IMG/VR virus record: IMGVR_UViG_3300012931_000667
Location: 1-64,000 of that record
Length of the DNA: 64,000 nt
Source: a virus
Direction: 5' to 3' (one strand)
Part shown: positions 10,524 through 18,942 of the stretch, piece by piece
Layout: each line of letters starts with the position of its first letter
Numbering within the stretch: position 1 is the first letter of the stretch
Notes under the pieces: generated by a model
Databases searched by the model: none
Told to the model about the DNA's origin: nothing
What the model saw: only the letters and a program-made list of their open reading frames with translations
Translations under genes and position numbers: made by a program

Positions 10524-13176
10524 TTACTCACTATCATCAAAATCAAAATATGAATTTAAATCTCTCATACAACTATCAAATTTTTCAATATTATAATCAT
10601 TATCAATTCTAATTACATCCATATTATTTTTATCTTTTACTATTGTTGCATATGGTCCTAATATTATATAAATATCTCTTAATATTTCATGTGCTTTTTG
10701 TAATGTATTAATTTCAGTTATTAGTTTTTCTATATTACTGAACTCCATCATTTTTATCCTTAATCACTCTTAATACTATATCCATTTTCTTTTAACATTT
10801 TCTTAAACATCTTTCTACCCACATTAAAATCTTTATTTACTTTTCTTACTTCAGTAACCAAATATTTTTCTACTTCTTCATTATCAATAAAATTTTGATA
10901 ATCATTATTAGAATCATAGATATCTACTCCCATATATCTAACTTTTTCATTATTACCATCTGTATGATAATCAAAAGTAAACAAACTATAATTTTCACTT
11001 TTATAGTCAATATCATTAAAATACTTTTCATTTAAATTCTTAATTGCTTCTACTATTAAAATATTCATACTAATTACTCCTTAAATTAATTTTAATATTC
11101 TTCAAATGGTTTTACACTATTTTTTCTTGATAAATAAGTAACTTTATAATAAGAATCAGGTAAACTAAACATTCCTCCACCATATAAGCCAATACTAAAA
11201 GTAACAAAGTAATTATTAATATTATTTACTAGTTCTTGTTTTCTTTTTTCTTTTCTTTCATTTGCATCATTTACTTCTTTTTCTGTATAATGTCCACCTA
11301 ATTGCCCTATAGAATGTTCTTCATAATCAAATATAGTATTTAATTTATATCTAATACTCCCATCTATAGTTACTAAATCAAATTCTTTATATTTACCATC
11401 TACTTCTACCTTTTCACCATTTAACTGTTCTACAATATACCTACAATTTTGTTTTTCTATCTCTCTCCTACCACCATAGCATCCTACATCTACATGATAA
11501 GTACAATATGTTTTTATATAAAATGGATTACATCTATACATATAATTACTAAATAGTTTTTCTATAGTATAAACAGTAGCATGTTCTTTAATTTTTGTAA
11601 AGTCATAGTCTTGATCAATAGTATACCCTGATTGTTTACCATCTTTATTATAGTAAGGAGTAGTAATATCAGTTTGTTCTAGTTCATCATGATAATATAC
11701 TTTTGACATTCCTCTAGGTACAATATAAAATTGTTTTCCTAATAGAAATGGAAAGTCTTCATATGTATATATTTTATGTAGGGTAAACCCATTACAAGTT
11801 TCTTTAGTAAAACCATAGTACCAATGTGAACCTACTTTTGTCGTTGCTCTATATAGTAAGTAGTTATTTCTAGATAAATAATAAAAATTATCTTGGTCAA
11901 TAGAGGCTATAGGATTTTGACCATCACCATTGATAATGATATCATATGATCTACCACCATCACCTTTGCATACAAATATACCTACTTCATTTCCTTTATT
12001 TAATTCAGAATTCAATATTGACAATACTTCTTCATTATTCATTTTTTGTATCCCATTCTATATAACCATATCCAAAATGGAAATTAGTATACATCCTATT
12101 AAAAAAATCATTTTCACTTTCAGTTAAAGCTTGTACCCTATGAGCAAACCATATATAACTTAGTATATCATGAAAAAATTCTACTGATAATATATTATGT
12201 TTTTCTTTAAATCTATTAATAGGAAATCCTATAATTTCTAAATCCTTTAATATCACCTTATAGTTTTCTTCAGTATACTCATATTCTTTTAACATGATAT
12301 CCCTTCTTATTAATCAATATGAATACAAATATTTCCATTTCTCATACTATAGCCAAAGCATAAATTACCATCATCACAAATTAATGCTAAATAATTATTA
12401 GGTAAATCTAAACTATTTTTAATTATCTTGTATGAATGTGTACCATACCCTACACCAGTACTTTCGTAGACTATATCAAAATCATCAATAATTAATTTTT
12501 TATTTTCTATAAACCATTCAGTAGCTATTTTGTATGTTTCTTTTAACCATTTATAAGTTTCATTATTTATTTTACATTTATCCATTTCATCCTTTGTATA
12601 TGCCCATGAAGAATATACAGGATGTAAATCTAGTAGTGGTTGATCCATATTATTCCTCCTCTTCTTCTATTTCAACATAATCATCTATAGATTCATAGGT
12701 ATATACTAACTTATCAATCATTATTAATGGTTGTGCTAAATAGTATCCTTCTGGAATAAAAGTATCATCAACTTTTTTATTATAATGATGATATCTATCA
12801 TTTAATGGTCCACCTACACAATGAAGAATACCACTAATAGTATCTAACTGTTCTTTATATTCATCCATTATTAATTCTAATTTTCTAATCATTAATTGTT
12901 GTTCTATAATTAATTTATCTTTTTCATTCATTCTTTTTTACCTTTTATATCAGGTTCAGCATGACATAACTCATCAGGCCAATGTAAACTTTTTTTTAAG
13001 TAATTTCCTGCTAAAGCGGCATCTTTACATTGTTCTACTGTTTTACCATAAGTAGTAATATGTTGTTGTCCTGATTTTGGATCATAACCAAAGATAACAA
13101 TTTCATCATAATTACTTTTTTCTGAAATTTCTTTTGCTAAACTAATAGGGATATCCATCATAAATATTTTTTCCAT
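10524..13176 (-). CDS. Cluster of seven hypothetical phage proteins
   Basis: Abutting or overlapping ORFs with RBS; no motifs recognised. Confidence 0.55.
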
Positions 13177-13267
13177 TCATTATTGATAGCTTCCATAACA
13201 AATTCACCTAATGCATCTTGTAAATCTTCAGGTTTATACTCACTTTTAATATATTGTATCATTCCCC
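13158..13267 (-). pseudogene. 3' half of a small gene split by the tnpB element
   Basis: Encodes (W)GMIQYIKSEYKPEDLQDALGEFVMEAINNEWKKYL*. Joins in frame to MMVDIRG at 14584-14605. Confidence 0.6.
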
Positions 13268-13279
13268 ATCATTCCTTTT

Positions 13280-14485
13280 TTATAGAAAACTACTTTCTAA
13301 AATTAGGTCTTTTTCGGTAGAGGAATGATAACTTCCTCTAGTTAGAATATTTAAAGCCGCATTATAATCTGCATCTGCTTCAAATCCACAACTTTTACAT
13401 TGGTATTTCTCTCCTTGACGGTTTGATTTATCAACTTCACCACAATTTGAACAAATTTGACTTGTATAAGCTGGATTTACTTTTATCAATTGAAAACCTT
13501 TCTCTTGACTTCGTATCTCCAGCAAGTCTAAAACTTGGTTATAAGCAAAATATTGTTGTATATTTAATTGTTTTCTACTCAATTTAGATTTATATCTAAG
13601 TAATTTTAAATCTTCACATACTATTTTCTGTACATCATCATATTCATTTAGAAATAAATTAATATTCCTATTTATTGAATCCTTCTTATACTTTAAATAC
13701 TGACTATAATTTTTACTTCCTCGTACTTTATTAGAAAGTTTATTATAAATACTTTCCATTTCTTTACCATAATAGTCTTCATTTGAAGAGGATATCAATT
13801 TTTTATATCCTAAGTCAATACCTATAATTGGACCAACAGATTTTTTTATAGTATCCTCTTTTTCAAACATAAAAATAAATTCAAATTGTCCATTACAATT
13901 CTTTTTTAAAAATACTGTTTTTCTTCTATTCCAATCTTTGTATTTATTATATTGCTTATGATATTTAATGGGTAGATTTATTTGTATAGCTCGATGTTTA
14001 TTCTCATAAAAATAAGGTAATTTTAATCCTACAAATTCATTAAATTCTTTAGAATCAGTACTAAAATTAAATTGACGTTCATCTATAGGAATAGTAATAT
14101 TTTTTAATTGTATTTTAATTCTTTTCATATAGTTTATATTTAGTTCACTAAATTTTTTATTAGTAAATTGACTATGAATTCCTTTTTTAATAAAAATAGC
14201 ATACAATTTTTGATATTTCTTAAATGTTCTGTTTTTAGTATATTTTAAATTACTTCTTATTATTTCAGAAGCTTGTTTATATAATATTGATTTATAGTGA
14301 GAATGACTCAATCTAATTGTAGGTAATTCTTTACAGGATAATAATTTTTTAAAAGGTAAATTACCATTAAGAATTAATTTAATATATTCAGTTAAATCAC
14401 TATTATAATCAGTATATAGTTTTTCAAGTAAAGCTAACTTTTGAGTATTACTAAATTTAAGTGTTACTTTACTTGACCTTACCAT
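13280..14485 (-). CDS. tnpB: TnpB RNA-guided endonuclease
   Basis: RuvC-I IGIDLG, RuvC-II VCEDL, VNPAYTSQICSNC...CKSC zinc finger, RuvC-III DADYNAALNI. Confidence 0.93.
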   Translation of the reverse strand: MVRSSKVTLKFSNTQKLALLEKLYTDYNSDLTEYIKLILNGNLPFKKLLSCKELPTIRLSHSHYKSILYKQASEIIRSNLKYTKNRTFKKYQKLYAIFIKKGIHSQFTNKKFSELNINYMKRIKIQLKNITIPIDERQFNFSTDSKEFNEFVGLKLPYFYENKHRAIQINLPIKYHKQYNKYKDWNRRKTVFLKKNCNGQFEFIFMFEKEDTIKKSVGPIIGIDLGYKKLISSSNEDYYGKEMESIYNKLSNKVRGSKNYSQYLKYKKDSINRNINLFLNEYDDVQKIVCEDLKLLRYKSKLSRKQLNIQQYFAYNQVLDLLEIRSQEKGFQLIKVNPAYTSQICSNCGEVDKSNRQGEKYQCKSCGFEADADYNAALNILTRGSYHSSTEKDLILESSFL

Positions 14486-14504
14486 ATCCTTAAATCCTTA
14501 TTAC

Positions 14505-14514
14505 TATATAGTTA
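14505..14514 (-). promoter_or_regulatory. TAACTATWTA putative phage promoter upstream of tnpB
   Basis: TAACTATATA about 20 nt before the tnpB ATG; the same motif recurs upstream of many genes. Confidence 0.5.
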
Positions 14515-14667
14515 AAAACTTTTATATTAACCCTTTTTTCTATACTTTACTATTTTTTACTATAAAATCAATAAACTATCTGTATCCTCTAATATCTACC
14601 ATCATTTAATTATTATTATCATAATATAAAATATTTTAGTATTTCACTCTTGATTTTAGTGTCCATA

Positions 14668-15369
14668 CTACCATCCTATTTCTTTAGAAATTGTAGGAGT
14701 CATACCGCCAAAGGATTGAAATCTAACCATAAAATAATCTGATAATTCTTTAGTAATGAATATTTCATCACCAGCAGGAGAAAACCTATAATAATATGCT
14801 AATTGATAATGATTCATACTATCAATTTTAGTTTTTAGTTCATTAATTCTTTCTATAGTCATTATATATACCATTTATCATAATTTAATTCTTCAATTTT
14901 ATTTTGAAGACCTAGATTGTTTATAAATTCTTGAATACCTTTAGGATTCCTATCAAAATCCCAAAAATTACCTTCAAAAATACATTTACCATCTTTACAT
15001 ATTCTCATCATTTCACATTTGGAATCATAAATTATATCAATCATTTTAATATTTCTCTTTCTTGATCTCTATAGTAACAGGTTTATCAGATTCAAAAATA
15101 ACTTTACCATCTACTATTACTTTTGATAATTCTCTTTCTTTATACATACTAATAACATCAGTAAATAAATAATTATTAAAATCAGTAATTAAGTAAGGAG
15201 TACCTTTACCTTCAAAATAACCAACACAAAATACTTCTTTTCTTTCAAAAAGATTTGCATATTGACTACTAACATCAACTCTAGGTGCTAATCCTTGTGA
15301 TAAATATTTATAAATTTCAGGATGACAGTTAAGATAATTCTTAATATTTACAGTTTCAACTTCTTTCAT
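14668..15369 (-). CDS. Three small hypothetical proteins (14668-14874, 14862-15044, 15046-15369)
   Basis: Packed ORFs downstream of a sigma70-type promoter. Confidence 0.55.
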
Positions 15370-15399
15370 AGTATACCCCTTTTATTTCTAATAAAAAAT

Positions 15400-15427
15400 A
15401 TTATACATAAATTACTAATTTTGTCAA
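15400..15427 (-). promoter_or_regulatory. Sigma70-type promoter immediately after the GIY-YIG gene
   Basis: TTGACA-N16-TATAAT. Confidence 0.7.
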
Positions 15428-15430
15428 TAG

Positions 15431-16213
15431 TTATCCTTCATAATACATCCAATGAAATCCACCAGCTTTATTTATTTCTCCTCTACAACAAGCTCCAATA
15501 CTTGTTCTATTAACTTTTGTTATTTTTGAAGCTTCATGTATAGATTCATAAACAATATTAGTTTCAATATATAAAACTTTTTTTGAGTTCACATTCAAGT
15601 TCCCTCTTTTACCATACATATGATTTTTTTCACCTAATTGTGCTATAGACATTTTATCTTTATGTTCTTTAGTAAATTTTTTACCTTTTCTTAATATACT
15701 CATTTTTGTTTTTGTTTCTTCTGAAGCTTTTTTTCCTAATTTTGTTTTTCTCATTTTTTCTTTAGATTTTTCAGTATGACTTCTTCCTAACCATATTTTA
15801 TTTCCTTTTTTAATTCTTCTTAAATTGTCTTTAACTTTTTCTGATCTTGGTTTCCCTAATTTTGATAAACTTATTTTTAATTTTGCTTCTTCAGTTAAAC
15901 CTCCATTAGTACCTCCTTCTTTCATATTGTACCCATATTCTTTATTTAGTGTCTTATAGAAACTAATGTAGAAACATTCCAAAATATTTAGAATTAATTG
16001 ATCTTTTCTATTTATGTTTGATAATATCTCAAATTTAAAATTATCTTTTCCATAAGTAATCCAAGATTTTTGTAGATGTTTATTATAATGCTTATTATTA
16101 TTTAATAATTTTTTATGATCTTTCCATCTATTATCAATATTTATGCTTTGACCTATATACTTTTTATTATTAATTAAATTAGTAATACAGTAAATCCCAA
16201 TAATTTTTTCCAT
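15431..16213 (-). CDS. Free-standing GIY-YIG homing endonuclease with NUMOD3 repeats and C-terminal HTH
   Basis: GIYCITNLINNKKYIGQS, GYN, repeated H(S/T)EETKxK(M/I)S-type units, C-terminal ESIHEASK...CCRG...AGGFHW. Confidence 0.9.
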   Translation of the reverse strand: MEKIIGIYCITNLINNKKYIGQSINIDNRWKDHKKLLNNNKHYNKHLQKSWITYGKDNFKFEILSNINRKDQLILNILECFYISFYKTLNKEYGYNMKEGGTNGGLTEEAKLKISLSKLGKPRSEKVKDNLRRIKKGNKIWLGRSHTEKSKEKMRKTKLGKKASEETKTKMSILRKGKKFTKEHKDKMSIAQLGEKNHMYGKRGNLNVNSKKVLYIETNIVYESIHEASKITKVNRTSIGACCRGEINKAGGFHWMYYEG

Positions 16214-16324
16214 TATTTTTCCCTTTTAAGTGGTTCCCGCCACTAATACAAATAGTTAAAAAATTAAAAGAGTTAGCTTAAAATTATTAATTTCGAGCAA
16301 CAGGCGGGAACCTGCTGTCCTCTT
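16214..16324 (-). ncRNA. Structured endonuclease-leader RNA, copy 1 (three-way junction plus kissing hairpin)
   Basis: P1 AAGAG/CTCTT, GAC, P2 AGCAGG-TTCCCG-CCTGTT, P3 GCT..AGC, TAA, T-tract, TAACTATTTG, P4 AGTGG-CGGGAA-CCACT, AAAGGG RBS. Homologous to copies 2 and 3. Confidence 0.8.
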
Positions 16325-16329
16325 CTAAT

Positions 16330-18942
16330 TTATAAAGTTTTATCAATATTATTAAAGGAAATTCCCTCCATTCCTAAAAATCCTGCTACTAATCTTTTAG
16401 TTACTAGTTGTCTTTTATGAATAAAAGAACTTAAAATTAAATCCCCTAGTTCATTTTCTTGTATTGCTAATAATCTTTTCATTTTTGTTTGTCTTTTACA
16501 AATTACATTAAAATTTTTATTTTCATACATGTCAATACCATAAATTAGTAATAAATAATCTTTTCCTCTTACTTTAAGAGAAGGCTGTATCATATATCCA
16601 TTTTGAGCATATTGCCTTTGTACTAATGGTTTAAATACAAAACCTTCACCACCATTTTCAGTATACTCTATCCATGAACTAATACAATTATTTATTGATT
16701 TAGGATCATTAAGATTTACATGAATAGACTCTACACATTTAAACTTATCATTTTCAATTGATCGAATGTATCCTAATTTTTCAATGTTGTCAAGTTCTTT
16801 CCCTAATATCCAATCATACTTATTACCAACTTTATCCCCTAATGCTAATATATTAAATACTCTGCAATATGGTTCTTCTTCTGCAATATAATTCTGTAAT
16901 GACTGCATATATTTATCTACATTAATTAATCCATTAACATCTTTTTTAATTGTTCTATCTATAGTAGCACATTCTCCTATACCTTGGAACTTATTTCTAA
17001 TTAACCATTTTCCTTTTAATGACCATGGCATCATTTCAGTATCAAGTATAGTAACGTCATATTCTAATTGATCTACTATTGAATCATAGAATTCTTGATC
17101 CATACTATCATCATCAAAAAATTTATTACCATTACGAGTATTAATATAAATCAATTTATCCATATTAAAATCTTTAGCTATATCTAATGATTTAAATAGT
17201 AATATATGTGCTCGACTACCCATGTACTTCTTTTCTGCTACAAGTTCAGTTATTCCCCTTGATCTATAATAATCAAAAACTGTAGTAGGGTATTCTAGAT
17301 AATCATTATGATCCTTACTAAAGTCTACAGGAGGAACAGTAGGAGCAATATAAAATATATTAGCACTATTAGTAAGGAATGCTCGATTAGAGTATCCATT
17401 AGAAATCTCTTTACCCTCTATGATATAATCACTAACAGGTAAATATATTTGAGAATGAAAACTAGATGTTTTATAACTAAAAGGTAACTTTCTATTAGGA
17501 TCAGAATTAGCAATTACAGCTAATATAGATGGAGTATCATAATAAGGTACTCCACATCCAGGCATATTTGCTCCATCAAGAATCCAACTATGAATAATAC
17601 TTTCTTTTTTATCTTCTGCTAGTTCAATTCCAGCATAACTAATTTCATATTTATTTTTTTCAAAATAACTACTAACTTCACTTTTGAATTGATCCCATGT
17701 AAACTCTATTTTATGCCCTTTATCCCTATAACCATTATTTCCTTGAATCTTTCCACTATCAAATAATTTTGAATTGTAATCATAATTAGGAGTAGTTAAT
17801 ATTATTACTTTAGGATTAATTACATTTATAATAAAATCCATTAATTGTTTTCTTTCATGGTCATCAAAATGCTCTATGATTTCAGATAACAATACAATAT
17901 CTATAGATTGTGGTAGTATTGATACATTAGGATATAGTAAATTCATTTGATAAAAATGAATATGCTTAAATTTATCTAATCCTCTTCCTGCTTTTTCTGA
18001 TGCATCATAAGCATAGATATCAAAAGGAATATTTTCATCTTTTAATTTATCATTTATCATTACTGATAATCTACCATTAGCACAACCATAATCAATAATA
18101 TTTAAATGTTCTGTTACTACTTGTTTTTCTTTTTGCATTAAACTGTAGTACATTACTACCTGATCACTAATCCATTTATGTCGTAATTGATGTAATGTAG
18201 TAAAATCAATATATAGTTGTTCCTTTACTACCTCTTGATCATCATCAATATCAATTACTGATTCTATAAATTTTTTCTCTAATGACTTATTACTTCTGCA
18301 TAATGTACGAATAATATTTTTAGTATAACTATTATCACTTTCTAACCATTGACACATTTTGATATACTTATCTATTTGTTCATCAGAAATAGGAAACATA
18401 TTATAATTAAAAGTAGAGTATAAACAAATCATAAATACTTTCTGTAATGCTACCTGTAATGTACTTTTAATGGTTAGATGTAATCCATAAGCTACATCAA
18501 AATTATCATATGTTTTAAATACATTAAAACCTAATGAACTAAAGACATTATGAATATCTCCAAAATCACATAAAAATGGTCCTATATCAAAACATATATA
18601 CCTTTCTCTAATGGATTCATCTTTAAGAACTGTACCCTTATTCATAAAATTAATAATTTCATCTTTATAATTATTAGTAAAAGCAGAACGTAAACACTCA
18701 TAGATTGAATTTAAAAAATATGGAGTAACCCCATATAACTGATATGAATTATATACTTCTTCATTTCTTTCTTTTAGTGTAGGAAGTAATTCAGTGAAAC
18801 TTAAATTAGAAGTAATACTATACACATTTCCTAAGTATTCTCCTCTTATTTTATTTTTATCATAAATTGATCCTGGCTTTTTGCATAAAAGGTATGAGAA
18901 TATTGAATCATTTTCCTCACCAGAATAAATATTAAAAAACAT
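16330..18942 (-). CDS. Fusion of Hen1 RNA 2'-O-methyltransferase and Pnkp-type RNA ligase domain
   Basis: Hen1 N-domain FSYLLCKKP. MTase motifs IIDYGCANG, EIIEH, TTPNYDYN, RDKGHKIEFTWDQF. Ligase motifs YIAPTVPP, EKKYMGSRA, GEGFVFKP, LKVRGKDYLLLIYG. Confidence 0.85.
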   Translation of the reverse strand: MFFNIYSGEENDSIFSYLLCKKPGSIYDKNKIRGEYLGNVYSITSNLSFTELLPTLKERNEEVYNSYQLYGVTPYFLNSIYECLRSAFTNNYKDEIINFMNKGTVLKDESIRERYICFDIGPFLCDFGDIHNVFSSLGFNVFKTYDNFDVAYGLHLTIKSTLQVALQKVFMICLYSTFNYNMFPISDEQIDKYIKMCQWLESDNSYTKNIIRTLCRSNKSLEKKFIESVIDIDDDQEVVKEQLYIDFTTLHQLRHKWISDQVVMYYSLMQKEKQVVTEHLNIIDYGCANGRLSVMINDKLKDENIPFDIYAYDASEKAGRGLDKFKHIHFYQMNLLYPNVSILPQSIDIVLLSEIIEHFDDHERKQLMDFIINVINPKVIILTTPNYDYNSKLFDSGKIQGNNGYRDKGHKIEFTWDQFKSEVSSYFEKNKYEISYAGIELAEDKKESIIHSWILDGANMPGCGVPYYDTPSILAVIANSDPNRKLPFSYKTSSFHSQIYLPVSDYIIEGKEISNGYSNRAFLTNSANIFYIAPTVPPVDFSKDHNDYLEYPTTVFDYYRSRGITELVAEKKYMGSRAHILLFKSLDIAKDFNMDKLIYINTRNGNKFFDDDSMDQEFYDSIVDQLEYDVTILDTEMMPWSLKGKWLIRNKFQGIGECATIDRTIKKDVNGLINVDKYMQSLQNYIAEEEPYCRVFNILALGDKVGNKYDWILGKELDNIEKLGYIRSIENDKFKCVESIHVNLNDPKSINNCISSWIEYTENGGEGFVFKPLVQRQYAQNGYMIQPSLKVRGKDYLLLIYGIDMYENKNFNVICKRQTKMKRLLAIQENELGDLILSSFIHKRQLVTKRLVAGFLGMEGISFNNIDKTL

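Follow-up and report, generated by a model that had tools for sequence, protein, structure and literature searches.

It is well established that TnpB-only elements exist and have a role in transposon retention. To our knowledge, however, TnpB-only elements in virulent phage genomes, where they would home between co-infecting phages, have hardly been documented. The closest described systems are the IS607-family TnpB proteins (CboTnpB/IStron, bioRxiv 10.1101/2023.11.20.567912; ISFba1, PMC11061315), a serine-transposase-linked clade that resembles the protein analyzed here in size (approximately 390 to 400 aa) and in the placement of the RuvC D/E/D residues (D194/E290/D371 in ISFba1). IS607-family elements also share with this locus the lack of inverted terminal repeats and target duplication, a guide taken from the right flank, and a right-end terminus that is similar but not identical to the transposon-adjacent motif (TAM). 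In ISDra2, of the IS200/IS605 family (PMC10097598), an RNA-guided RuvC nuclease uses an omegaRNA lying over the tnpB 3' end, with a pseudoknot adjacent to the guide and a TAM located 5' of the left end, all of which have a found or predicted counterpart here; it differs in its Y1 transposase partner, longer scaffold (116 nt, four stems), and TAM (TTGAT). Homing endonucleases of lytic phages, whether free-standing or carried by introns (T4 Seg/Mob; reviewed in PMC13565253, with "transposon non-restorative homing"), are alike in the outcome that we propose: a co-infecting relative's allele without the element is cut, and spread follows by recombinational repair. These enzymes recognize their target by protein, whereas recognition by RNA plus a short motif is proposed here. 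GIY-YIG homing-endonuclease genes adjoin the element in the same phage.

The DNA analyzed (the window) comprises the first 64,000 nucleotides of IMG/VR record IMGVR_UViG_3300012931_000667, from an uncultured wetland phage. Positions 13268 to 14583 of its minus strand hold a tnpB-only element of 1,316 bp, made up of a left end of 98 nt, a tnpB gene of 401 codons, and a right end that finishes 12 nt past the stop codon. The features of the locus are as follows:

14619-14666, minus strand: what is left of the N-terminal part of the interrupted gene (MDTKIKSEILKYFIL*), out of frame with the MMVD piece
14584-14605, minus strand: 5' piece of the interrupted gene (ATGATG...AGAGGAT, MMVDIRG), from the window sequence and the alignment to the metagenomic protein P0122
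14584-14590, minus strand: predicted TAM, AGAGGAT, at the end of the 5' gene piece
14486-14583, minus strand: left end, 98 nt, from the window sequence
14508-14518, minus strand: T-tract plus TAACTAT, promoter-like, from a motif search
14503-14512, minus strand: palindrome ACTATATAGT in the left end, overlapping the T-tract/TAACTAT motif
14487-14491, minus strand: AAGGA ribosome-binding site in the left end
13280-14485, minus strand: tnpB, 401 aa, intact RuvC/zinc-finger nuclease, RNA-guided by family (Pfam, NCBIfam, and structure)
13318-13340, minus strand: hairpin 1 (TAGAGGA agttatcat TCCTCTA), within the tnpB 3' end, with covariation
13325-13329, minus strand: hairpin-1 loop bases ATCAT, predicted to pair with the tail
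13283-13299, minus strand: hairpin 2 (TAGAAA gtagt TTTCTA), overlapping the tnpB stop codon, present in the minimum-free-energy fold
13268-13275, minus strand: right-end tail GGAATGAT, closing with ATGAT, the five bases that complement the hairpin-1 loop
13248-13267, minus strand: predicted guide template GGGGAATGATACAATATATT, 20 nt of right flank immediately 3' of the right end
13158-13267, minus strand: 3' piece of the interrupted gene (..WGMIQYIKSEYKPEDLQDALGEF...KKYL*), matched by P0122

On the minus strand, the left flank (...GATATTAGAGGAT) reaches 14584 and is followed by ACAG, while the right end (...GGAATGAT) reaches 13268 and is followed by GGGGAATGATACAATAT. Because GAT is common to both junctions, the breakpoint can be moved by up to 3 bp; this GAT is the only identity between the junctions, which show no target-site duplication, and no significant terminal inverted repeats were found in the element. 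Removal of 13268-14583 restores the open frame MMVDIRGWGMIQYIKSEY...KKYL*, the empty site that the initial annotation had reconstructed, proposing that homologues should contain the joined IRGWG junction. The 34-aa downstream open reading frame, used alone as query against 1.84 billion proteins, retrieved P0122, a metagenomic protein of 78 aa (from a JGI contig of 3,887 bp) whose residues 43-75 are 76% identical to the 3' piece (E 1.4e-8). P0122 is contiguous across the predicted IRG|WGMIQY joint, where it carries VRAWGMIQY (...MMVDVRAWGMIQYIKSE..., against MMVDIRGWGMIQYIKSE in the reconstructed counterpart), and aligns to the rejoined gene without gaps at the joint, with 36 of 51 residues identical (MMVD(V/I)R(A/G)WGMIQYIKSE), so both the empty site and its junction were borne out. 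This comparison, made at the protein level, confirms the insertion point and indicates that P0122 is the uninterrupted allele of the host gene in a relative; P0122-like DNA would be expected to read ...(N)GNNT|GGGGNATGAT... at the joint, with no extra bases. Two other junctions, a right end at ...ACAATAT (13251), prompted by the similarity of loci L048 and L053, and an IS607-style GG-core junction giving MMVDIRG-MIQY, were dropped because P0122 keeps WG at the joint. Searches of IMG/VR with P0122 gave no match, nor did metagenome scans with P0122 peptide patterns and with a 27-nt right-flank pattern. As for close relatives of the phage, an IMG/VR search with its 870-aa Hen1-ligase gave no match, and the 82-aa neighbor protein retrieved only L003, a distant, nonsyntenic, high-GC locus.

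The TnpB protein matches the TNB domain (Pfam PF07282, E 7.6e-21, 74.5 bits, cut-off 26.3), and its score with the NCBIfam model guided_TnpB (87.7 bits) falls below the curated cut-off of 100, which we read as a sign of a divergent clade. The three RuvC acidic residues already recognized in the initial annotation (D224, E291, and D373) are invariant among 32 homologues, as are the four cysteines of the C4 zinc finger (C345/C348/C363/C366); with the RuvC triad intact, the protein does not resemble the nuclease-dead TnpB regulators of the TldR type. In the AlphaFold2 model (pLDDT 88.3), the protein is predicted to have the full-length TnpB/Cas12f fold (WED-REC-RuvC-TNB), and Foldseek matched it to AsCas12f (9e-17), the ISFba1 IS607 TnpB (8iaz, 1e-12), and the ISDra2 TnpB (2e-11), at TM-scores near 0.5; at the sequence level, the alignment with ISDra2 TnpB covers the C-terminal half only. 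No CRISPR array, such as would accompany a Cas12f or type V CRISPR system, was found between 10000 and 18000.

The right end has several features of a guide RNA scaffold. Hairpin 1, noted earlier as overlapping the tnpB 3' end, shows compensatory double changes at four of its seven pairs in 28 loci, with a score reached by none of 500 shuffles, and its stem was recovered independently by RNAalifold, which found no other conserved stem in the last 200 nt. The covariation of the right-end hairpins includes G-U pairs, and the sequence of hairpin 2 differs across the family. Of 48 loci, 37 have a complement of the hairpin-1 loop downstream, whereas mismatched loop/tail combinations give 15.8% (Fisher 1e-18); the pairs include ATAGT/ACTAT, ACAGT/ACTGT, ATTGT/ACAAT, ATAAT/ATTAT, ATAGA/TCTAT, and ATAGC/GCTAT. 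The ATCAT/ATGAT pair of this element occurs in no other locus compared, which indicates that the pairing was maintained in this lineage. The first complementary tail lies 20 to 50 nt after hairpin 1, and it is directly past this tail that the similarity between paralogous copies ceases; the right-end border at 13268 falls where the family-wide evidence places the border between scaffold and guide. In ISDra2 TnpB, positions -5 to -3 beside the guide form such a pseudoknot, a conserved feature of Cas12 guide RNAs (PMC10097598). The 5-nt tail and the hairpin-1 loop very probably form a guide-adjacent pseudoknot here as well, within a predicted structured RNA that overlaps the tnpB 3' end and ends at the right end of the transposon. 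No Rfam family, RAGATH-18 included, matched the right end of this element or of 11 related loci, in contrast to the RNA of ISFba1 TnpB, which is RAGATH-18 derived (PMC11061315).

Additional damage to the host gene lies upstream of the insertion. An in-frame TAA (14606-14608), corresponding to Q33 of P0122, lies immediately upstream of the MMVD piece, and the N-terminal remnant matches residues 3-14 of P0122 (8 of 12 identical, tblastn) in frame +2, the rest of the gene being in frame +3; about 38 nt are absent relative to P0122. The stop codon of the gene overlaps the start of the next one. The best explanation is that the element has entered a small and dispensable phage gene at its W codon, and the upstream lesions mean that the insertion may be old and fixed. 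There is only one copy of the element in the record (77.9 kb available, CheckV completeness 39%), and no transposase was detected in the element or in the whole record, including in searches for IS607-type serine TnpA, so the label "tnpB-only" given in the initial annotation holds for these 77.9 kb. It could be argued from the single copy, the missing TnpA, and the extra TAA and frameshift, which fit a long stay in a dead gene, that the element is an immobile relic whose TnpB and omegaRNA have no target left, its reading frame being intact because too little time has elapsed or because it has another use. We consider this unlikely, though it is the most serious competitor of an active nuclease: the 401-aa frame keeps every catalytic residue, the lineage-specific compensatory ATCAT/ATGAT pair argues for ongoing selection on the RNA, and a relative does have an uninterrupted allele.

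The affiliation of the element can be approached through its relatives. An IS607 transposase is encoded directly upstream of tnpB in locus L032 (NCBIfam NF033518, 152 bits, cut-off 110), and homologues of this TnpA precede tnpB in 15 of 80 loci (tblastn), which identifies the TnpB clade as being of the IS607 type (serine transposase) and not of the IS200/IS605 type. A phage-rich, IS607-associated clade is the best explanation of these data. It includes the tnpB genes of two GenBank phages, Nitratidesulfovibrio phage SRB7757 (Desulfovibrio phage 7757, 40.6% identity) and the huge phage LR756500.1 (45.5%), aligned over 97 to 98% of the length, with different ends, hosts, and targets in records where they are unannotated; in SRB7757 the loop/tail pairing is not obvious. 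The clade qualifies as IS607, and this copy is non-autonomous, without TnpA. It also lacks, unlike CboTnpB/IStron, a group I intron, given that an Rfam scan of 12500-15500 (E <= 1) gave no match and the left end has a length of just 98 nt. Further differences concern the G-rich signatures of IS607: where IS607-family elements end in GG, with a GG core and a G-rich TAM, the ends in this clade are ..GAT, ..TAT, and ..TGT (..ATGAT here; ..CTAT, ..CTGT, and ..TTAT in relatives), and the flank AGAGGAT, G-rich only in part, differs from TGGG, AGGAG, and GAGGG. Insertion 3' of a short motif with no duplication of the target, the hairpins of the right end, and a slightly better score with IS200_TnpB than with IS607_TnpB (47 versus 33.6 bits, each well short of its cut-off) would also be compatible with an IS200/IS605-type element moved as single-stranded DNA by a Y1 (HUH) TnpA, with a pentanucleotide TAM recognized through subterminal hairpins. 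This is very improbable, since the transposases directly upstream in relatives are serine transposases of the IS607 type, no Y1 transposase (PF01797) was found in the 77.9-kb record, and the right-end hairpins behave like RNA, with covariation that includes G-U pairs and a pseudoknot.

The last two or three nucleotides of the left flank and of the tail coincide, as a shared crossover core would predict, here (GAT) and in L007 and L050 (TAT), L027 (TAT), L034 (TGT), and L047 and L051 (AT), but not in L011 and L067/L068; the TGGG and TCGG of the Clostridium botulinum IS607 element are a comparable case (bioRxiv 10.1101/2023.11.20.567912). The TAM is read from one junction plus this family trend. 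Comparison with about 50 related phage loci yielded the clade type, the pseudoknot tail, and the flank/tail identity, and on this basis a guide of GGGGAAUGAUACAAUAU... and a TAM ending in GGAT (about AGGAT) are well-founded predictions. The 16-mer guide occurs once in the 77.9-kb record, and its exact matches in IMG/VR (13 contigs, none with GGAT in front) look like chance. The guide begins with 10 nt that duplicate the tail (GGAATGAT twice, at a spacing of 10 nt). In the minimum-free-energy fold these can pair with hairpin 1, which might interfere with scaffold folding. Either AATGAT copy could pair with the hairpin-1 loop, and a scaffold/guide border at the second one (ending at 13258), with ACAAUAUAUUAAAAGUGAGU as guide, is hardly credible: P0122 sets the DNA boundary at 13268, family paralogues lose similarity at the first complementary tail, and a guide from 13257 would match the element-bearing genome itself beside the same ..TGAT motif.

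The left end contains, as described in the initial annotation, ATAG(T/A)AAA repeats at 10-bp spacing: three copies at 14536, 14546, and 14556 on the minus strand, detected by Tandem Repeats Finder as an array at 14534-14563 (period 10, 3.0 copies), with one inverted copy in the right end (13282-13289). The proposal that the element carries a motif of the phage was upheld in part. A T-tract plus TAACTAT is found 25 to 50 nt upstream of about eight gene starts, including those of three homing-endonuclease genes and tnpB, but TAACTATATA shows no phage-wide enrichment: the exact 10-mer is present at two places in the window, and allowing one mismatch raises the count to 46, where 49.9 are expected. 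The 7-mer TAACTAT itself occurs 45 times in the window, about as estimated from base composition.

The comparisons at sequence level demonstrate the insertion point, the intact nuclease gene, and conserved RNA features of the right end. On balance, we regard the locus as probably a non-autonomous tnpB-only insertion sequence of an IS607-associated clade with RNA-guided cutting of element-less alleles. The T-tract/TAACTAT of the left end would drive transcription of tnpB, and the 3' part of the transcript (hairpin 1, hairpin 2, and the loop-pairing tail) would provide the omegaRNA scaffold, with the next 16 to 20 nt of flanking phage DNA (GGGGAAUGAUACAAUAU...) as guide. The ribonucleoprotein would then cut element-less copies of the gene, in which a GGAT-ending motif (AGAGGAT here) abuts the guide match. 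Where a related phage that has the uninterrupted gene infects the same cell, repair of the break would draw on the element-bearing genome and copy the element (homing), or the competitor would be eliminated; homing against related phages can reasonably be inferred. True transposition would need an IS607-type TnpA in trans.

The element is a well-defined yet fairly ordinary case of a known class, a useful example and no surprise. Its value is that a phage copy offers a full, checkable list of parts: a TAM candidate, a guide, a scaffold with a covarying pseudoknot, a promoter-like motif, and an empty-site homologue. More speculatively, and with considerable doubt on our part, the whole clade could be an essentially phage-borne offshoot of IS607, its crossover cores being AT/GT in place of GG and its omegaRNA a compact one that Rfam lacks, serving in lytic phages as an RNA-guided nuclease for homing or competitor exclusion in the niche of protein homing endonucleases. 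On this reading, the copy of the scaffold tail within the guide (GGAATGAT twice) may be the mark of how new targets are acquired or a gate on scaffold folding. The rules of the clade (pairing between the tail and the hairpin loop, a left flank that ends as the tail does, and ends other than GG) make guide annotation simple and are applicable to hundreds of phage tnpB loci missed by current RNA libraries.

The 1316-bp element (minus strand, 13268-14583) lies between a left flank reading ...AGAGGAT, with its terminus at 14584, and the sequence GGGGAATGATACAATAT, which follows a right end terminating in ...GGAATGAT at 13268. Its deletion fuses ATGATGGTAGATATTAGAGGAT with GGGGAATGATA... in frame to give MMVDIRGWGMIQYIKSEY...KKYL*, and the statements of the initial annotation on the sequence of the element all held when rechecked against the window. 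That annotation had named a homologue carrying the joined sequence as the decisive test of its reconstructed empty site. With the downstream 34-aa ORF (13158-13262) as sole query, a search of 1.84 billion representative proteins matched the query itself and P0122, a hypothetical 78-aa protein from a 3.9-kb JGI metagenomic contig (76% identity over the query). Directly upstream of the match, P0122 reads ...NNQMMVDVRAWGMIQYIKSE, while the upstream fragment of the window, MMVDIRG, is 1.3 kb distant and was outside the query. P0122 aligns with the virtual empty site without gaps across the joint (36 of 51 residues identical); the homologue thus exists, and the insertion is real and was reconstructed correctly. 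Since this alignment is ungapped, two other junctions are excluded, an alternative right end at ...ACAATAT (13251) and a GG-core joint, either of which would lose WG or disrupt the frame relative to P0122.

The interrupted gene, which has no Pfam or PHROG assignment, carries further lesions upstream of the insertion (window 14606-14666, minus strand) when aligned with P0122. There is a TAA at the position of P0122 Q33, one codon ahead of MMVD, about 38 nt are absent, and the first ~13 codons (MDTKIKSEILKYF), which begin at 14666 right after the stop of the upstream gene, are out of frame. Therefore, precise excision would give back an ORF of at most 44 aa and not the 78-aa protein.

The window derives from a 77.9-kb IMG/VR virus record (CheckV completeness, 39%; G+C content, 25%) contained in wetland metagenome runs. 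The genes beside the element on the minus strand are those expected of a large lytic phage, and the features discussed here are as follows.

13280-14485, minus strand, tnpB
15431-16213, minus strand, GIY-YIG/NUMOD3 homing endonuclease
16330-18942, minus strand, methyltransferase-Pnkp-ligase fusion
28 nt ahead of the tnpB start, in the left end, T-tract plus TAACTAT
16258 (-), 48627 (+), 55418 (+), 38115 (-), 28710 (-) and 14514 (-), T-tract/TAACTAT sites

The fusion protein (870 aa) combines methyltransferase domains at about residues 280-390 with a Pnkp-type ligase domain at 522-847 (Pfam E value, 1e-56) and looks like an RNA-repair enzyme; a peptide-pattern search found no close IMG/VR relative.

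The protein encoded by the element is indeed a TnpB, with a Pfam TNB domain (E value, 7.6e-21), 511 homologues at E ≤ 1e-10 and invariant D224/E291/D373, the three RuvC acidic residues already noted in the initial annotation, together with four invariant zinc-finger cysteines. The AlphaFold2 model is confident (pLDDT, 88.3), and its top structural matches are Cas12f, ISFba1 (an IS607 TnpB), Fanzor2 and ISDra2 TnpB. The protein scores 87.7 bits against the NCBIfam guided_TnpB profile (cut-off, 100) and belongs to a divergent clade, with at least 524 relatives in IMG/VR. Because an IS607-type transposase is found immediately upstream of tnpB in 15 of 80 fetched loci (tblastn census with the TnpA of locus L032 as query), the clade is IS607-associated; the transposase is a Pfam Resolvase, and that of L032 reaches 152 bits against the NCBIfam IS607 transposase profile (cut-off, 110). 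Most copies in the clade are tnpB-only, as was claimed for the window copy, whose record contains a single copy of the element and neither a serine nor a Y1 transposase. No group I intron was found at the element, nor was a CRISPR array found. The element itself is non-autonomous, and the IS607-associated TnpB clade to which it belongs is common among phage contigs.

Among the matches listed, IMG/VR contigs contain many full-length relatives with more than 35% identity, and those from prokaryotes (one genome per species) comprise two MAG contigs with full-length relatives (Treponema and Bacilli) and others matching the C-terminal domain only. The clade is also present in GenBank phages, in a 462-kb huge phage and in Nitratidesulfovibrio phage SRB7757, and this distribution suggests that it is mainly phage-borne. 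Four diverged tnpB copies in IMG/VR phage contigs (L007, L011, L013 and L050; 87-89% identical) have a TGA at one shared codon (L007:3610-3624), where some relatives have W (DADWN). When L007 is read with code 4, its tnpB forms a complete ORF of 392 aa in which this is the only TGA, and the four copies point to TGA=W recoding in these phages rather than to pseudogenes. In some relatives, the place of the transposase immediately upstream of tnpB is taken by a 50-aa ORF (L027:2349-2498; also L029 and L034). The L027 ORF has weak, sub-threshold, ribbon-helix-helix-like matches (RepB-RCR_reg, E value 0.0018; DUF6290, 0.015), and this type is possibly an Arc-like regulator, similar to those newly reported with IS605 elements.

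A common plan emerged when 3' ends were compared across about 50 distinct loci: a hairpin lies within the final tnpB codons, which encode R-G-x-Y-x-x-S, and after it come an A-rich linker, a further hairpin whose sequence varies, and a short tail. The stem of hairpin 1, the predicted omegaRNA scaffold stem, occurs as TAGAGG/CCTCTA, TTTGGG/CCCAAA, TATGGG/CCCATA and GAGGGG/CCCCTT; double changes affect four of its seven pairs, a covariation score reached by 0 of 500 shuffles, and RNAalifold recovered the same stem independently. The tail terminates in five bases that match, as their reverse complement, five bases in the loop of hairpin 1; 37 of 48 loci show this complementarity, compared with 15.8% for loops paired with mismatched downstream regions (Fisher, 1e-18; the loci are related and the trials not independent). 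Six different loop/tail pairs occur, and non-majority loops alone have a complementary tail in 19 of 28 (related) loci versus 15.3% in the control (2e-9). In diverged copies of one element in different contexts (L007/L011/L050, L027/L029/L032/L034, L020/L021/L052 and L047/L051), similarity ceases directly past the tail. The loop in the window, ATCAT, is found in no other locus of the set, and the first ATGAT complementary to it terminates at 13268, the boundary derived from P0122. Pseudoknots next to the guide are characteristic of the guide RNAs of TnpB and Cas12. The one in ISDra2 pairs positions -5 to -3 with -103 to -105 (PMC10097598). Rfam has no family, RAGATH-18 with its link to IS607 included, that matches the right end of this element or of 11 related loci.

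The tail octamer is repeated exactly 10 nt downstream, within the guide region (GGAATGAT GG GGAATGAT; 13258-13275, minus strand). The second copy belongs to the native coding sequence (it encodes WGMI, which P0122 has as well), and a rough estimate from base composition makes such a repeat unlikely by chance (on the order of 1e-4). Tail-like repeats also open the flank in L052 (GACTGT|GACTAT) and in L013 and L050 (CTAT|CTAT). In the minimum-free-energy fold, the 5' part of the guide pairs with hairpin 1. A 16-nt exact match to the predicted guide (L094:716-731, minus strand) lies in a tail-fibre-like ORF of >453 aa on a 99.5-kb phage contig, where it encodes ATRAWGMIQY (RAWGMIQY is identical in P0122) and is preceded by GCTT, not GGAT; the match is either coincidental or due to a short module that the two have in common.

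The last two or three bases of left flank and tail are equal in the window (GAT/GAT), L007 and L050 (TAT/TAT), L027 (TAT/TAT), L034 (TGT/TGT), and L047 and L051 (AT/AT), but differ in L011 and L067/L068. Matching termini would be expected for a serine transposase with a shared 2-bp crossover core, which in this clade would be AT or GT, as opposed to the GG of described IS607 elements. Given this pattern and the shared-core logic, the initially proposed TAM of about AGGAT is a fair prediction. Self/non-self discrimination would then depend on positions further 5' (AGGAT versus ATGAT), in parallel to the C. botulinum IS607 element (TGGG versus TCGG). Three kinds of evidence agree on the predicted guide and TAM, namely the junction in the homologue, the boundaries seen in paralogous copies and the register of the pseudoknot.

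The left end (98 nt) has three ATAG(T/A)AAA repeats, at the spacing of exactly 10 bp first described, and one inverted copy lies in the right end; they could be vestigial transposase-binding sites. The 10-mer TAACTATATA, initially regarded as a phage motif, did not hold up, with two exact copies and no enrichment of one-mismatch copies. The TAACTAT 7-mer by itself is not enriched either. The T-tract/TAACTAT arrangement precedes about eight genes, at 25-50 nt from several starts, among them tnpB and the homing-endonuclease genes at 16258 (-), 48627 (+) and 55418 (+), and is a candidate phage promoter box. Relatives in other phages have different promoter-like boxes in their left ends, and the element seems, from these motifs, to be adapted to the transcription signals of its resident phage. 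The chief value of the element lies in being a clean, assayable example and in the clade-wide annotation rules that it revealed.
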